64,000 nt of DNA from the NCBI GenBank assembly GCA_951406725.2, contig OX597819.1:112530001-112594000 (forward strand). Direction: 5' to 3'. A program made the position numbers and the translations under genes. This DNA is from Octopus vulgaris (lineage: Eukaryota). Positions 19,381 through 51,081 of this stretch are shown in pieces. The notes below the pieces were generated by a model. It worked only from the letters and a program-made list of their open reading frames with translations, did not search any database and was not told where the DNA came from. Position 1 is the first letter of the stretch. The number at the start of each line of letters is the position of its first letter.

Positions 19381-20974
19381 ACGTCTCTCCCAATATGCTT
19401 GAATATCCAATAGTGTTGATGTATATTTCATTCAGTTATGTTTTTTTTTTTTTTTGGTAATGGCCTTGAAGAATATTCTGGTATTCAAATATTTGTTCTT
19501 CTATAAGTGTTCACAATTAGATTTTTTTTTTCTCTTTCATACTGGTTCCTTCCATTTCCATTTCACTAATGAAAATTTATGTCGATAGAATTGATCTCAA
19601 AACAAGTATCGTGCTAAAGCTACTCTGATACAAACTAAAGCTGAAACATTAACTCTTGATACCAACCCATCTGAGACTCCCTCTAGTTCTTCGATATAAA
19701 ACGTAATATTTTCAAGCGTTTATATTGACAGTAAATTAAAACCTTCCATCATAATTTTATATATACTCTTTTATCAAGTTATGTTTCAAAGAACAACTGA
19801 AAAGATAAGTTATTTTACTAACTCCTGCCAAATTCTTGATTATTTTTAAAATTCACAGAAGTATGTAGATTGTGTTTCATTATAAATATGATCATGAAAG
19901 AGTGAAATTACATTTAGACTTTGAAGGCACACACACACACACACACACACATTTACACCCCTACCCCATACAAGATATCCCAGTGATAAACTACAGCATT
20001 GTTATCTGAAATGGACAGTATTTCTATTCACGAGTGAGATTTTACTTCATCCATTGATGCAACACTGCCAATATTGTTTATAGAACTGGCGCCGAGCGGG
20101 CAGAAAAGTTGGCATGCTGAGTGAAAAGCTTAGCGGTATTTCATCTGCCATTACATTCTGAGTTCAAATTGCGCCATGGTCGACTTTACCTTTCATCCTT
20201 TTGGGGTCGATTAAATAAGTACCAGTTACGCACTGAGGTCGATATAATCGACTTAATCCGTTTGTCTGTCCTTGTTTGTCCCCTCTGTGTTTAGCCCCTT
20301 GTGGGTAGTAAAGAAATAGGTATTTCATCTGCCGCTATGTTCTGAGTTCAAATTCCGCCGAGGTCGACTTTGCCTTTCATTCTTTCGGGGTCGATTAAAT
20401 AAGTACCAGTTACGCACTGGAGTCAATATAATCGACTCAATCTGTTTGCCTGTCGTTGATTGTCCCCTGTGTATGTAGTAAAGAAATAAGAATCGTGGGC
20501 ATGCCGGACAAAATGCTTTGCGGCATTTCGTCCGCCTTTATGTTCTGAGTTCAAATTCCGCTGAGGTCGAATTTGCCTTTCATCCTTTCATAGTCTATAA
20601 AATAAGAACCAGTTGAACACTGAGATTGGTGTAATCGACTTACCCCTCACACGAAATTGCTGGCCTAGTGCCAAAATTTGAAACCGATATTATTTATAGA
20701 ATTCCAGGTGAACTTAGTATCCATTGGACCTAGAGGGAGTCTGTGTGACAATACTAGAGTCTATAAGAAACTTAGCCCAGTACTCTACTATATTTCATAT
20801 TTCAATATCCCACACTATAAGTACCAGTTACGCAATGGGGTCGATGTAATCGACTTAATCTCTTTGTCTGTCCTTGTTTGGCCCCTCTGCCACCACCACC
20901 CCTGTGGGCAATAAAGAAATAAATATCCCACACTGTGGTATGTATATTAAAACTACGTAATTTTCTATTTCCAG

Positions 20975-21044
20975 GTTGGGTCCTTGAACGCTTGTTTCAT
21001 GGCTAAACGTGGATTTAAGGTTTCACTGTATGAATTACGAAAAG
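20975..21044 (+). CDS. KMO: KMO coding exon 2 (VGSLNACFMAKRGFKVSLYELRK)
   Basis: ttttctatttccAG acceptor, GTAAGG donor, 70 nt; completes the GGGLVG motif with exon 1. Confidence 0.95.
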
Positions 21045-23937: not shown

Positions 23938-24680
23938 TTCTTCCCGCTCGTGTGTGACACTTCTGTCTGGCAGTCGCCATGATAGATCGTTAGACACTAC
24001 ACACATTTTTTCTCTCCTTGTTTTTTCTGTGTCCCTTTCTGTAGAAGAGCGTAGGCTCGAAATGTAAAAGACTTTTTCTATTCCTGAGCGTTATACTAAT
24101 ACATCTGTTTGTTTTGTACACCACCTGTCTTCGTCTTCTGTTTTTTTTTTGTAAATTCTCCCTATATATCACACGCTCACGTGGTCGCACATGTTGATCC
24201 TGTCATTTCTTACAACACACGAACTTCTCCACCGGACTCTCTATCTACCCTCTACGGATTCCCGTTTGGACATTTACCCTCCGGCTGTACCCCTCCTACC
24301 TACGGATCACTGTGGACTCTACTCTTGATGAGAAATCCTTGCAATACACCACAACGTCAAAACCTGTGAACGTTACGTAAAACTGTTATTATTATCATTA
24401 CTTTATTTTTATACTTTCTAAACATCCTTGCATTTTCTGGTCTTATCTCCCCTACTTCTTCCCTCTCATGTGTCGCCATGATAGATCATTAGCCACTACA
24501 CACATTTTTTCCTCTCCTTATTTCTCTCTTTGTTTTTTCTGTGTCCCTTTCTGTAGAAGAGCATAGGCTCGAAACATAAACGACTTTTTCTATTCCTGAG
24601 CGTTATACTAATACATCGGTTTGTTTTGTACACCACCTGTCTTTGTCTTTTGTTTTTTCGTGAATTCTCCCTATATATAT
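23935..24680 (+). mobile_element. Penelope-like/retrozyme-type partial tandem repeat with two hammerhead-like motifs 512 nt apart
   Basis: About 230-bp direct repeats (23935-24168, 24454-24678), each with CTTT CTGTAGA A GAGC-RTAG-GCTC GAAA NN TA AA; flanked by (TA)n. Confidence 0.7.
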
Positions 24681-32030: not shown

Positions 32031-33015
32031 AAGCTTGTGGATATGTGAGGTTACAGGTAATAGCTGGATACCTACATAAATTCTATAAGGAATAATATCA
32101 ATCCTGAGTCAGGTTGAAGAGTCTTATAATAATTCTGCATGTCCTTGCATTACTTAGTTTGTCGGTAATGCTTTCATGTTTATTTATGTGCCCTTTTCAA
32201 GCCTAGCCAGGCTCATGGGCCTGGTTTCCCGGTTTCTGTGGTGTATGTGTTCCCCCCAGCTGGACGGGATGCCAGTCCATCGCAGCGTTACTCAAGAAAT
32301 AGGAAGGAAGATTGAGAGAAAGTTGGGGTGAAAGAGTACAACAGGGGTTGTCACCACTCCCTGCCGGAGCTTCGTGGAGCTTTAGGTGTTTTCGCTCAAT
32401 AAACACATACAACACCCGGTCTGGGAATCGAAACCACGATCCTCCAACTGCGAGTCCACTGCCCTAACCACTGGGCCACTGTGCCTCCATTGCTTTCATG
32501 TAATTAGAGAAAAAGCAGGAGAGAAAAGCGTCCATGATGTGAGGTAGAGGGAATGTAATTGTGACTCTTTCAGGTGATTAGTTGAAGGGAAAGAGAGGAG
32601 AAAGAAAAAGGTGAGAAAAAAAGGGGATAAGGCAAAGAGGGAGAATGAAAAAGAGGGAGAGAGAAGTGTCCATGATGTGAGGTAGGGGAAATGTAATATT
32701 CATTACATGGTTAAAAAAAAGTTAGTTGAAGGTAGAGGAGGAGAGTTAAAATATAATTTTAGCAGAGGGGTGATGTTCTGATGGCGAGGTTAAAGAAAGG
32801 CACAGTGAGAAGGGGAGGGAGAGAGAGAAGGGAGGGGCAAGAAAGACAATGATGGTGGTGGTGGATGGCAGATACATGCAATTCAATTAAAGCTTGTATC
32901 ATATGTACTGGGGATATTTTTTTTGTTTATAAGAAAAATAGAAAAATAAGAGTGAATATTTATTTTATGAGTATTGTGTATTAAGTCTATAAAATTGTAC
33001 ATAAAGTATATAAAG

Positions 33016-33610
33016 ATATTTAAACATAATCAAATAGGGTAATAAAATAAATTATTATTACCAGTGGCCTAGCACAAAAGACAAATTAGTCATTAGACTA
33101 TATATTTTTCGTATAGAAATATAATAAAAGGCTTCCAAATAAGGAAGCTTAGTGCTAGAAACACAAAAAGGGATAAATTCATGAAAGGAATGAAAATTAA
33201 AAACATTTACCATCTCAGCTATATCCCAGACCGATTGGTTTCTACCTATTTTTAGCAAACACAGAATATATTTGCCAGGCCAGGTTCTTCAGTGGGAAGC
33301 CTTCGTAATCCTAGATGCACAGACTGTTAGAAGCACATGTAGATCTAACGGTTTGTATATCCTAACTTTTCAAACCTTTGCGCAGACGCAAAACATACCC
33401 GGCGAACAGAGAGGATGCTGGTAAAAAATTTACGAACAAATTTATCAAGCAATATTTAAACATAATCAAATAGGGTAATAAAATAAATTATTATTACCAG
33501 TGGCCTAGCACAAAAGACGAATTAGTCATTAGACTATATATTTTTCGTATAGAAATATAATAAAAGGCTTCCAAATAAGGAAGCGTAGTGCTAGAAACAC
33601 AAAAAGGAAT
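33016..33610 (-). mobile_element. Retrozyme/Penelope-like insert: 156-bp terminal direct repeats, 436-bp period, 11-bp TSD
   Basis: 33016-33171 matches 33452-33607 with 2 substitutions seen; AGTATATAAAG at 33005-33015 and 33611-33621; internal hammerhead. Confidence 0.8.
33224..33297 (-). ncRNA. Type I hammerhead ribozyme with canonical core
   Basis: Minus strand UCCCA CUGAAGA ACCUG[11-bp inner hairpin]UAGGU A GAAA CC-AAUC-GG UC UGGGA; predicted cut after GUC (33229/33228). Confidence 0.78.
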
Positions 33611-33784
33611 AGTATATAAAGTGTATATTCAAAGTGCATTAAGTAATCATTGTATTTCATTTTCTTTCACTTTTCAATGAGCAGCAGATGAGTGACTATC
33701 TTTTGATACAGACAAAACCACAGGCTGCACTTTCAGGTTTTTGGGATAAAATTTTCAGAAATAACCCAATAGGTTTACCATTAT

Positions 33785-34247
33785 TTCCATGAATTCACAG
33801 GTCCCACTAGTAATTCCGTGAATTCACAGGTCCCGCTAGTAATTATGTGAATTCACATGTCCTACTAGTAATCCCATGAATTCACAGGTTTCGCTAGTAA
33901 TTCCATGAATTCACAGATCCCACTAGTAATTCTGTGAATTCACAGGTCCCCACAGGTCCTACTAGTAATTCCGTGAATTCACAGATCTGGCTAGTAATAC
34001 CATGAATTCACAGGTCCTACTAGTAATTCCTTGAATTCACAGGTCCTGCTAGTAATTCCTTGAATTCACAGGTCCTGCTAGTAATTCCGTGAATTCACAG
34101 GACCCACTAGTAATTCCATGAATTCACAGGTCTCACTAGTAATTCTACAAATTCACAGGTCCTGCTAGTAATTCCGTGAATTCACAGGTCCCATTCGTAA
34201 TTCTACAAATTTACAGGTCCTACTAATAATCCCATGAATTCACAGGT
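33785..34247. repeat. 29-bp minisatellite, about 16 copies
   Basis: Unit TTCCRTGAATTCACAGGTCCYRCTAGTAA, contiguous, no spacers. Confidence 0.92.
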
Positions 34248-34492
34248 ACCCCGGTGCTTAACTAAATGATGAAAGGCAAAGTGAAACTTTGCAGAATTTG
34301 AACTTTGAACGTAGAGATGGATAAAATGACAACTGCAAGAATAATGCCCCCCTAAAACCACTATCACTTCAGTTACCATGACTACCAGTAAAACTACCAC
34401 CAACACCATTACCTAGCCACTACAACAACCACCACCACTACACCTATCATAATGACTAGTTCAACTATGAACTAGCAGCAGTGCATCTATAT

Positions 34493-38970: not shown

Positions 38971-39154
38971 CTTTTGTTATATTTCTGCTACTTTTAAATA
39001 AAGTATATATATATATATAAAATTAAATAAGGGTAGAAATTGATATTAATCAATTAAAACCAGTGGCCTAGCATATTTTAAAAAAATTTGAAGATTAAAA
39101 ATTTTATACATACAAAATTTAGTGGTCATTCCTCTAAATTTTGTATATATATAT

Positions 39155-39335
39155 AAAGGGAAAATTTATGAAAATAAACAAAAGACGAAGGCAGGTGGTA
39201 TACAAACAAACAGATGTATTAGTATAGCACTCAGGAATAGAAAAAGTTGTTTACGTTTCGAGCCTACGCTCTTCTACAGAAAGATACACAGAAAAAAAAC
39301 AAGGAGAGAAAAAAATGTGTGTAGTAGCTAACGAT
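39155..39335 (-). mobile_element. Solo copy of the CTGTAGA hammerhead-like repeat
   Basis: Minus strand CTTT CTGTAGA A GAGC GTAG GCTC GAAA CG TA AACA at 39248-39283; abuts (TA)n. Confidence 0.7.
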
Positions 39336-45434: not shown

Positions 45435-45610
45435 AGAGTTTATGAAAAAAAACAAAAGACGAAGACAAGTGGTGTACAAAACAAACAGATGTATTAGTAT
45501 AATGCTCAGGAATAGAAAAAGTCTTTTACATTTCGAGCCTACGCTCTTCTACAGAGAAGGACACAGAAAAAACAAGGAGAGAAACAAGGAGAGAAAAAGA
45601 AGAGAAAAAT
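45430..45610 (-). mobile_element. Solo copy of the CTGTAGA hammerhead-like repeat, inside (TA)n
   Basis: Minus strand CTGTAGA A GAGC GTAG GCTC GAAA TG TA AAAGAC at 45521-45561; (TA)n on both sides. Confidence 0.7.
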
Positions 45611-49046: not shown

Positions 49047-51081
49047 TGTAAGGAATATGTGAATATCTCCTCTTGCACTTTTGGGGTGCAAGTTGGTGCA
49101 ATCACTTTCCGTTGCTTTTATATCCAGACTCTACCAGTCAAAGAAACACAAAACGCAGACGTAAAAAATAGATATACTTTATTGTTTTATACCGGTGAGA
49201 AATCAGTGGTATATCTGATGTCCTTGGTTCTGGGCGCGCAAGGCTGAAAGTTAATCGATTGTAATATTTACAATGTTCAGCCGCTAAAAATAGAACGGGT
49301 CAAAATGGCGTCCGGAGGAAGAAGATGATGTCTGCAACAATTCAGGTTAAAAGTCTTCGGCCAAAAGACTGCTGCTATCAAAACCGGAGAGAAAACGAAT
49401 TAAACGTCTGCTTCTATGAAAAGCCTGCCGCTGTCTCGTCAGACGCTAATGGTCAACGCTTTACGCTCCCTTGCCTCTTTGTTAAGGCTCACGCTCCCTT
49501 GCCTCTTTGTTAAGGCTTGCGCTCCCTTGCTAAGGCCACGTCAGCAAGGCCACGTCAGCTAAGGCCACGTCAGCAAAATTCCCTCTTTCGGACTTCGTGT
49601 ATTCGCGAGAGGGCGTTGCGCGCGCTGTTGTATAGGATCACTACAAAGCTCCCCTCCAGTGCCTAAGCACGAACAACAATTCCTTGTAGTGACCATAAAA
49701 CTCAAGGTGGACACCAGATAACCAAAAATAGCACACAATATAATACATTAAACAGCAAAAAAAAATTCACCTTAAAGGTAAAAAGAGAAAAATACTCAAA
49801 ATGAGCAAAGTTCAATGAGTATTGAACTGTCACTGGGAAGTCAATTGAAAATGTCAAATATAAATAGTTTTGGAAAGTTTTTTCGGCCAGTGAACAGTTC
49901 TGCCTGACCTCGTAACATAAGGTCTGTTCGAGGCAGGCTGCGACGACGAAGGTGGTGTTGTCGATGTTGGTGTTGATAATGGTGCATGTGTAAATAGTGG
50001 TGTTGTCAAAGGTGCATGTGAAGGTTCAACGATGGTTGTGGCAGTGGGGTCATTAAAAGATATGGACACCTCAAAATATGCCCTTTTAAGACGATCTACG
50101 GAGACGGTCTCCGAACGACCGTTAATTTCAAGTTTGAATACCTTCGGCGTGCGAGAAATCACACGAAAAGGTCCTTTATAAGGAGAAACAAGAGGTCCTT
50201 TGACAGAATCATCACGAATAAAAACATGCGTCCAAGAATTAAGGTCTGATGGCACACTAGAAGGAGGATTTTGGTGTCGAGGGTCCATAGGAGGAAGGGC
50301 AGAAAAATATCTGCGTAATCGAGCAACATAAGACTCTAAATTAAGAGACTGTGACTTGTCTGGCACCAACATCGTACCAGGCAATGCCAGTGTGGTACCA
50401 TACAAGAGCTCGGCAGACGAAAAACCAAGGTCTGCTTTAATCGCAGTCCGACATCCAAGCAAGACGATCGGTAGAAATTCAGTCCATGACTGTGGATTCG
50501 GCGAGGCACGCAAAGCGGCCTTAAGTTGCCTATGGAAACGCTCCACCATCCCATTAGAAGCAGGGTGGTAACTTGTGGTGCGTATATGATGCATCCCCAG
50601 GATTCGTGATAACTCACGAAACAATGCAGACTCGAATTGTCGACCACGATCTGTGGTTAAACTGTACGGTACACCATACCTCGAAATCCAATTAGATACG
50701 AAAGCCCTCGCAACAGTTTCAGCTGAAATGTCTGCTATAGGAATAGCTTCCGGCCAGCGTGAAAAACGATCAATTCAGGTTAAAAGTCTTCGGCCAAAAG
50801 ACTGCTGCTATCAAAACCGGAAAGAAAACGAATTAAACGTCTGCTTCTATGAAAAGCCTGCCGCTGTCTCGTCGGACGCTAATGGTCAACGCTTTACGCT
50901 CCCTTGCCTCTTTGTCAAGGCTCACGCTCCCTTGCCTCTTTGTTAAGGCTTGCGCTCCCTTGCTAAGGCCACGTCAGCAAGGCCACGTCAGCTAAGGCCA
51001 CGTCAGCAAAATTCCCTCTTTCGGACTTCGTGTATTCGCGAGAGGGCGTTGCGCGCGCGCGCTGTTGTATAGGATCACTAC

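Follow-up and report, generated by a model that had tools for sequence, protein, structure and literature searches.

What is the insert that interrupts a repeated sequence near the middle of a 64,000-nt stretch of Octopus vulgaris DNA (the window; contig OX597819.1, positions 112,530,001 to 112,594,000), and by which machinery did it arrive there? The initial annotation had described it as a recently mobile, non-autonomous retrozyme, present as a circularly permuted copy of more than unit length and bearing a hammerhead on the minus strand. We conclude that the window copy is a real, moderately young member of a hammerhead retrozyme family. Its mobility is borne out; its recency is relative, given its divergence from the family consensus (Table 1), and the nearest paralog found is 96.6% identical to it.

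The insert and its target site

The direct repeats of 156 bp with two substitutions that had been reported at the two ends of the insert are present (33016-33171 and 33452-33607), and the two differing positions are 33083/33519 and 33149/33585. Three nucleotides at the right-hand end, previously set aside as extra, turn out to belong to the unit, from which they differ by a single substitution at 33608, and the overlap is therefore 159 nt. The family unit is 438 nt long, non-coding and arranged head-to-tail, with a GC content of 35%. As had been stated, there is no ORF of note: the longest that begins with ATG, when the unit is tripled, encodes 51 amino acids, and no ORF for a reverse transcriptase (RT) with GIY-YIG was found within the unit or contiguous with it.

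The 11-bp duplication just outside the insert, AGTATATAAAG, occurs in the window only at 33005 and 33611. Contigs join 33004 to 33611 over a single 11-mer; thus, the duplication is a true target-site duplication (TSD), as proposed. The empty form, along with versions shifted by 1-2 nt, was found in four of four runs (X1, X2, X4 and X8; DNA-type or unlabelled), the joint in X4 sharing 6 letters at the 33004 to 33611 row and 9 at the shifted row, and one contig from X2 crosses the right-hand junction in its filled state. The search suggested earlier, for an empty allele with a single 11-mer, was successful as regards the empty form but gave no proof of an allele, as the empty forms are probably paralogs of the high-copy repeat that the insert has split. 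Across the family, TSDs were detected at 5 of 125 loci compared with 1-4 in controls, which is no better than control, and a scheme with TA tracts written inside the TSDs is unsupported by the same counts. Possible 9-bp TSDs were seen at loci L203 and L022, that of L203 enclosing TA tracts, in a setting where the family-wide count does not exceed the control.

Other features of the window may be mentioned here. A 29-nt minisatellite (33718-34308) begins 100 nt to the right of the insert. A hammerhead-like CUGUAGAAGAGC-GUAG-GCUCGAAA repeat is present at 24030-24150, 39170-39300 (minus strand) and 45445-45587; it probably represents a further family of PLE ends, one in which the core is altered. 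A short exon-like match to kynurenine 3-monooxygenase lies at 20972-21043 on the plus strand (E 0.003, weak); no further exons were found in the 143 of 228 plus-strand segments covered by a Pfam scan. A 306-aa open frame (49857-50774, minus strand) resembles by eye what we take to be an LTR-retrotransposon integrase.

Table 1. Positions of the insert, its parts and neighbouring features, in window coordinates
Feature	Position	Strand	Remarks
High-copy host repeat split by the insert	32850..33717	.	Depth, joints, loose ends; paralogs show the pre-insertion state
TSD, left copy, 11 bp	33005..33015	+	Empty form 33004 to 33611, 11 shared letters
TSD, right copy, 11 bp	33611..33621	+	
Whole insert	33016..33610	-	595 nt = 1.36 units; 9 substitutions and one 2-nt deletion relative to the family consensus
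Ends of the insert in RNA sense		-	5' end = consensus nt 280; 3' end = nt 438
3' (downstream) copy of the repeated 159 nt	33016..33174	-	
Upstream partial unit, pseudo-LTR-like	33452..33610	-	Includes the three nucleotides first read as extra
Head-to-tail junction	33439..33470	-	Seamless, no inserted TA tract; the 32-mer has 18 exact genomic matches, control 0
98-nt tail between sites B and A	33021..33118	-	Modal ends at consensus nt 335 and 433
Family 3' end site B	33119; internal copy 33555	-	Modal end = consensus nt 335
Family 3' end site A	33021; internal copy 33457	-	Modal end = consensus nt 433
Superfamily motif TGCTAGGCCACTG	33062..33074; second copy 33498-33510	-	2653 genomic matches, control 3
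Type I hammerhead variant	33224..33297	-	Predicted cut 33229/33228
Stem I, UCCCA/UGGGA	33297-33293/33228-33224	-	
CUGAAGA	33292-33286	-	
Stem II, ACCU(G)/(U)AGGU	33285-33282/33247-33244	-	Inner hairpin of 11 bp with 3 G-U pairs
Unpaired A between stem II and GAAA	33243	-	
GAAA	33242-33239	-	
Stem III, ACC-AAUC-GGU		-	C17 at 33229
Sister-family short inverted pair	39005..39155	.	Motif at 39061-39073; TA tracts flank; by eye against L122, L126 and L129

The hammerhead and its core

A type I descriptor scan of both strands of the window gave three matches, of which the only convincing one lies in the insert; an Rfam search gave no hammerhead match. The ribozyme had been called complete and intact. 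Its stems, core and predicted cleavage site are indeed in place, including the C3 U4 G5 A6 N7 G8 A9, G12 A13 A14 A15 and U16 H17 positions listed as canonical in PMC3088659, but loop 3 reads AAUC where the family has GUUC, and the unpaired A at 33243 makes the core a variant. The stem II pair 10.1-11.1 does not adjoin G12, the extra A being found in 57 of 57 tail-selected passes, and the stem II variants AACU/AGUU and CACU/AGUG within the family fix the register such that this A is left unpaired. A sister family of 449 nt has an A-A mismatch in its place. GUUC is the main loop 3 of the family and a sister subfamily has the palindromic ACU-GAUC-AGU; a GAUC palindrome closed by CC/GG was rejected as the family loop, having only 3 matches. 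The hammerhead insertions named in the text of PMC3088659 are A6a, U13a and two near C3, and PMC4209133 mentions a base left unpaired in stem II, at its 5' end rather than its 3' end. No report of an insertion between 11.1 and G12, or of the octopus family, was found in the literature searched, to which Figure 5 of PMC3088659 and the supplements could add. The extra A could lower ribozyme activity.

There is evidence that this structure has been maintained. At loci picked by the tail alone, independently of the hammerhead, the 12 core bases show 6 changes in 627, compared with 1649 in 19431 at the other positions of nt 1-355 (permutation p=0.0006); that is, variability of 1.0% against 8.5%, or approximately eight-fold lower in the core. 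N7 varies freely (21 A, 20 C and 6 U). Among 65 distinct hammerheads, 95.5% of cells pair and 36 two-sided changes are found in stems I, II and III (0 of 500 shuffles), where it should be noted that these were chosen via the core pattern and that related sequences inflate the covariation count, which represents few subfamily events. With its conserved core and covarying stems, the hammerhead looks to be under selection, and its cleavage is predicted to occur after C17. The predicted pairing probability of stem I is 0.96 for the isolated ribozyme and 0.01 within the whole insert. For related elements, Li et al. (10.64898/2026.07.22.740005) describe eight of nine Xenopus retrozyme dimers as giving no cleavage in vitro.

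These data bear on the proposal that a LINE, or duplication at the DNA level, has spread the unit as a SINE- or satellite-like repeat in which the hammerhead is a decayed passenger. An 11-bp TSD and 5' truncation would also suit LINE-type priming, and the hammerhead departs from the canonical form and escapes recognition by Rfam. The low variability of the core relative to the rest of the unit argues against a passenger, as does, for SINE-like spread, a unit with neither a poly(A) nor a simple 3' tail.

Dispersed copies and their 3' ends

The genome searched comprises 2.8 Gb in 227 contigs. A search with the unit gave 81 matches among the 40 scored of 2021 candidates, and exact patterns gave 46 matches for a 27-nt stretch of the hammerhead and 175 for a 26-nt stretch of the tail, as opposed to 0 for the reversed controls, so the family is not a product of chance. 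It consists of at least 175 copies, scattered and not arrayed, which agrees with the earlier description of a mobile, non-coding, hammerhead-bearing, retrozyme-type element with many paralogs. A mixed sample of 150 loci (30 selected for similarity, 35 for the hammerhead pattern and 85 for the tail pattern) was mapped on the 438-nt consensus, 125 loci remaining after removal of duplicates. Two hammerhead positions on the same strand, complete or nearly so, are found only in L052, L153 and L223. The window copy has a single hammerhead, outside the repeat, and would thus be unable to cut out a monomer.

When arms of at least 40 nt are counted, leaving out the window copy, the 190 arms of the 125 loci end at site A in 104 cases (mode nt 433), at site B in 62 (mode nt 335) and elsewhere in 24. 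Since 166 of 190 3' ends are confined to two sites, 98 nt apart, the free circular permutation expected from the initial annotation is rejected; the arrangement is the signature of a PLE 'tail'. (TA)3 is found within 20 nt of 132 of these 166 ends, inverted pairs are of the A+B kind in 38 of 48 cases and never A+A or B+B, and the 5' ends are ragged and scattered. The related proposal that the template continues past the end of the unit does hold, junctions being seamless and 21 of 84 tail-selected loci exceeding one unit; the longest arm is 822 nt, and none is longer than 1.9 units. Ragged 5' ends, partial tandems, an inverted copy and a tail are the anatomy described for PLEs by Craig et al. 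(PMC8557442), the optional tail being attributed by Frangieh et al. (PMC11167929) to two internal start sites of reverse transcription, and TSDs of 8-10 bp are given for rotifer PLEs in PMC3846280. A 5'-end hot spot at consensus nt 324-331, just upstream of site B, gives tail-only copies (13 of 151 passes at 324-328), and could reflect either microhomology involving TA or blockage at the second start site.

Returning to the SINE or satellite proposal, the copies are dispersed instead of arrayed, and LINEs are not known to show two fixed ends inside the unit or inverted pairs of the A+B kind. We consider this explanation very improbable.

The family belongs to a wider group defined by the 13-nt tail motif (Table 1). 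Of 70 motif sites sampled, 50 have a simple repeat 30-75 nt after the motif. Units in tandem are spaced at 449, 492, 515, 524, 533 and 536 nt, several with related hammerheads. The window contains a second representative: the fragment at 39010-39145, taken earlier as a relative of the insert, shares a motif of 13-15 nt and the architecture of the end, but BLAST against the unit gave nothing at E 0.01 and it is assigned to a sister family.

Coding PLEs with an RT plus a GIY-YIG domain at the C terminus are also present in this genome, and in one of these the two ends run into (TA)n with a modal separation of 98-99 nt; at 30 loci, the end is the near one in 14 cases, the far one in 10 and unassigned in 2, and 4 are without a hammerhead. 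Among 150 coding candidates that were scored, the longest open frame has 685 aa. The tail of this PLE has a long hairpin and then a CUGGU...UACC hairpin, and the family tail is predicted to fold alike. A loose version of the CUGGU...UACC pattern fits 54 of 70 motif loci, a count without a control. BLAST of the PLE with the 98-99-nt tail against the unit did not find shared sequence, and no homology of the unit to a coding PLE terminal repeat was seen among 80 coding loci, which represent two PLE groups from more than 10,000 candidates. This GIY-YIG coding PLE is a candidate partner of the octopus family. Loci L061-L110 hold abundant coding PLEs in which a long asparagine-rich stretch separates RT from GIY-YIG, one family having a hammerhead with a palindromic stem III and the 98-99-nt tail; a second coding group (L231-L260) has a hammerhead approximately 300 nt past the ORF and two ends approximately 65 nt apart, as judged by eye.

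It might be argued that the unit is itself the pseudo-LTR or 3' end of an unfound coding PLE, all copies being truncated. Fixed ends and a tail are indeed characteristic of PLEs, the coding PLEs of this genome bear similar hammerheads near their ends, and the searches scored the best candidates only. The initial annotation had anticipated such a case, in which the ends are fixed and attached to a coding PLE; the former holds, but none of the copies continues into a coding PLE. Arms that extend past the 5' end of the unit enter another unit and never a common outside sequence or ORF, and the loci longer than one unit speak against truncated ends in the same way. The sister families, with spacings of 449-536 nt, act likewise. 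Across 70 loci with the motif, 125 loci of the family and 80 coding loci, no ORF is contiguous with the motif or the unit, the GIY-YIG fragments near 4 of the 70 motif loci being separate insertions. This reading appears improbable.

Template and relation to known systems

Mobilisation by a PLE is, taken by itself, highly probable. The fuller explanation that we favour is that a 438-nt non-coding hammerhead element is pasted into the genome by a PLE RT/GIY-YIG endonuclease from circular or end-joined RNA. The element would then be a small parasitic RNA that depends on PLE enzymes for its copying. The rare loci with two hammerheads (L052, L153 and L223) would be transcribed, the hammerheads would excise the monomer and a host ligase would close the circle. 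A PLE protein would then nick AT-rich DNA and begin reverse transcription internally, at site A or B of the RNA; copying would pass the rejoined cleavage site, proceed for more than one turn and then truncate. The window copy would have begun at A and ended 1.36 turns later, making it a daughter that, with one hammerhead, is no source of monomers. For the chain as a whole, the balance of probability is modestly in favour.

The main competitor retains the PLE and dispenses with the circle: the template would be linear, uncleaved read-through of a tandem locus, and the hammerhead would serve for trimming or RNA-level control. In the only PLE tested in vitro, that of the anole, cleavage is reported in PMC11167929 to be dispensable and the main template is uncleaved RNA. 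In the octopus family, 86 of 92 passes read through the predicted cut site, which suits a closed circle as well as a linear template, and the 1.9-unit ceiling on arm length fits a linear template. The 5' ends at nt 224-228 account for 6 of 92 passes compared with a 2% baseline (p=0.010; approximately five independent events, measured on 140 arms with at least 85% identity), an excess that is weak, with the windows 73-77, 286-290 and 324-328 equalling or exceeding it. Four inverted or fold-back loci (L142, L187, L189 and L197) have their turn at the predicted cleavage site or no more than 2 nt away from it. In favour of a circle, the two repeats of a tandem locus agree in their subfamily variants (24 loci; 96 shared against 53 + 53 one-sided), two short overlaps being poor (13% and 29%); young tandem masters would also yield matching repeats. 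A linear template is harder to reconcile with the finding that no upstream-versus-downstream differences are inherited consistently across loci, the 11 recurrent sites each occurring in 2-3 loci. Moreover, a ragged family capped below two units should shrink unless a monomer rebuilds the tandems.

Locus L150 (1033-1586; duplicate L151) also counts against a linear template. Here, a 253-nt unit without the ribozyme is repeated approximately 2.1 times, and nt 40 is fused, in the absence of microhomology, to nt 226, which lies immediately past the predicted cut. This is the pattern that would be expected from a rolled RNA circle. The junction has three genomic matches, all at L150 and its duplicate, and is a single event; a separate 253-nt mini-unit family is rejected on that basis. 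Related retrozymes of coral, mussel and axolotl are described as forming circles (PMC7229834). All told, we regard a purely linear route as unlikely. A bolder picture, for which the odds are short of even, is that of a long-lived, viroid-like lineage of RNA circles without a coding relative (at least seven unit sizes, 438-536 nt; approximately 2,650 motif-bearing insertions), which would exploit a PLE of the Neptune/Hydra type through mimicry of its two initiation sites, both in shape and in their 98-nt separation. The RNA would be cleaved by a new variant of the hammerhead, in which an unpaired A precedes G12, and rolling reverse transcription would integrate it, L150 being the fossil of a mis-ligated mini-circle.

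The retrozyme class is already known, and the octopus family is a variant of it. Plant LTR retrozymes, as portrayed in PMC7229834 and by Li et al., are likewise non-coding hammerhead retroelements with direct repeats and a TSD, but have type III hammerheads in both LTRs, a 4-bp TSD, PBS/PPT and a Gypsy partner, whereas the octopus insert has a TSD of 11 bp and a single hammerhead, of type I, that lies outside the repeat. The non-autonomous Chlamys elements such as MRC1 (PMC8557442) are similar in being non-coding PLE dependants with pLTRs and head-to-tail insertions; according to the same account, MRC1-type elements generally resemble the 3' end of their autonomous partner, and canonical hammerheads are lacking from most Chlamys elements. 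With EN+ PLEs of the Neptune/Hydra type, which have a C-terminal GIY-YIG (PMC8557442, PMC11167929, PMC3846280), the family shares 5' truncation, partial tandems, an inverted 5' copy, an optional tail, (TA)n targets and a hammerhead. It differs in having no ORF and a tail of 98 nt, compared with the 30-40 bp described in those papers; the local coding family also has approximately 98.

The closest relatives are the animal non-LTR retrozymes (PMC7229834; Li, Clavereau & Pollet 2026), with which the family has in common a non-coding unit of 150-450 bp (350-390 bp in mussels), a type I hammerhead, low GC, a TSD of more than 4 bp and co-existing PLEs. In contrast to these, octopus copies are mostly dispersed, of sub-unit to 1.9-unit length and in inverted pairs instead of arrays; there are two documented fixed 3' ends; the hammerhead has a long stem II and, ahead of GAAA, an unpaired A; and no match of the unit to a coding PLE pLTR was found. 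Li et al. (10.64898/2026.07.22.740005) proposed animal retrozymes as non-autonomous PLE derivatives on the basis of co-occurrence and pLTR similarity, and neither two fixed ends nor A+B pairs are documented in the consulted text of that preprint or of PMC7229834. Both sources treat as open the identity of the mobilising enzyme and whether RNA circles serve as the template. The octopus element is an animal non-LTR retrozyme, or non-autonomous PLE, with variant features, and very likely uses PLE machinery. It provides direct genomic footprints, namely two fixed initiation ends, A+B inverted pairs and a cleavage-site junction, together with a named candidate partner that shares its tail length, and the published in vitro PLE assay is therefore directly applicable. 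To the known systems, it adds a natural variant of the hammerhead core, and its tail is over twice as long as those described.
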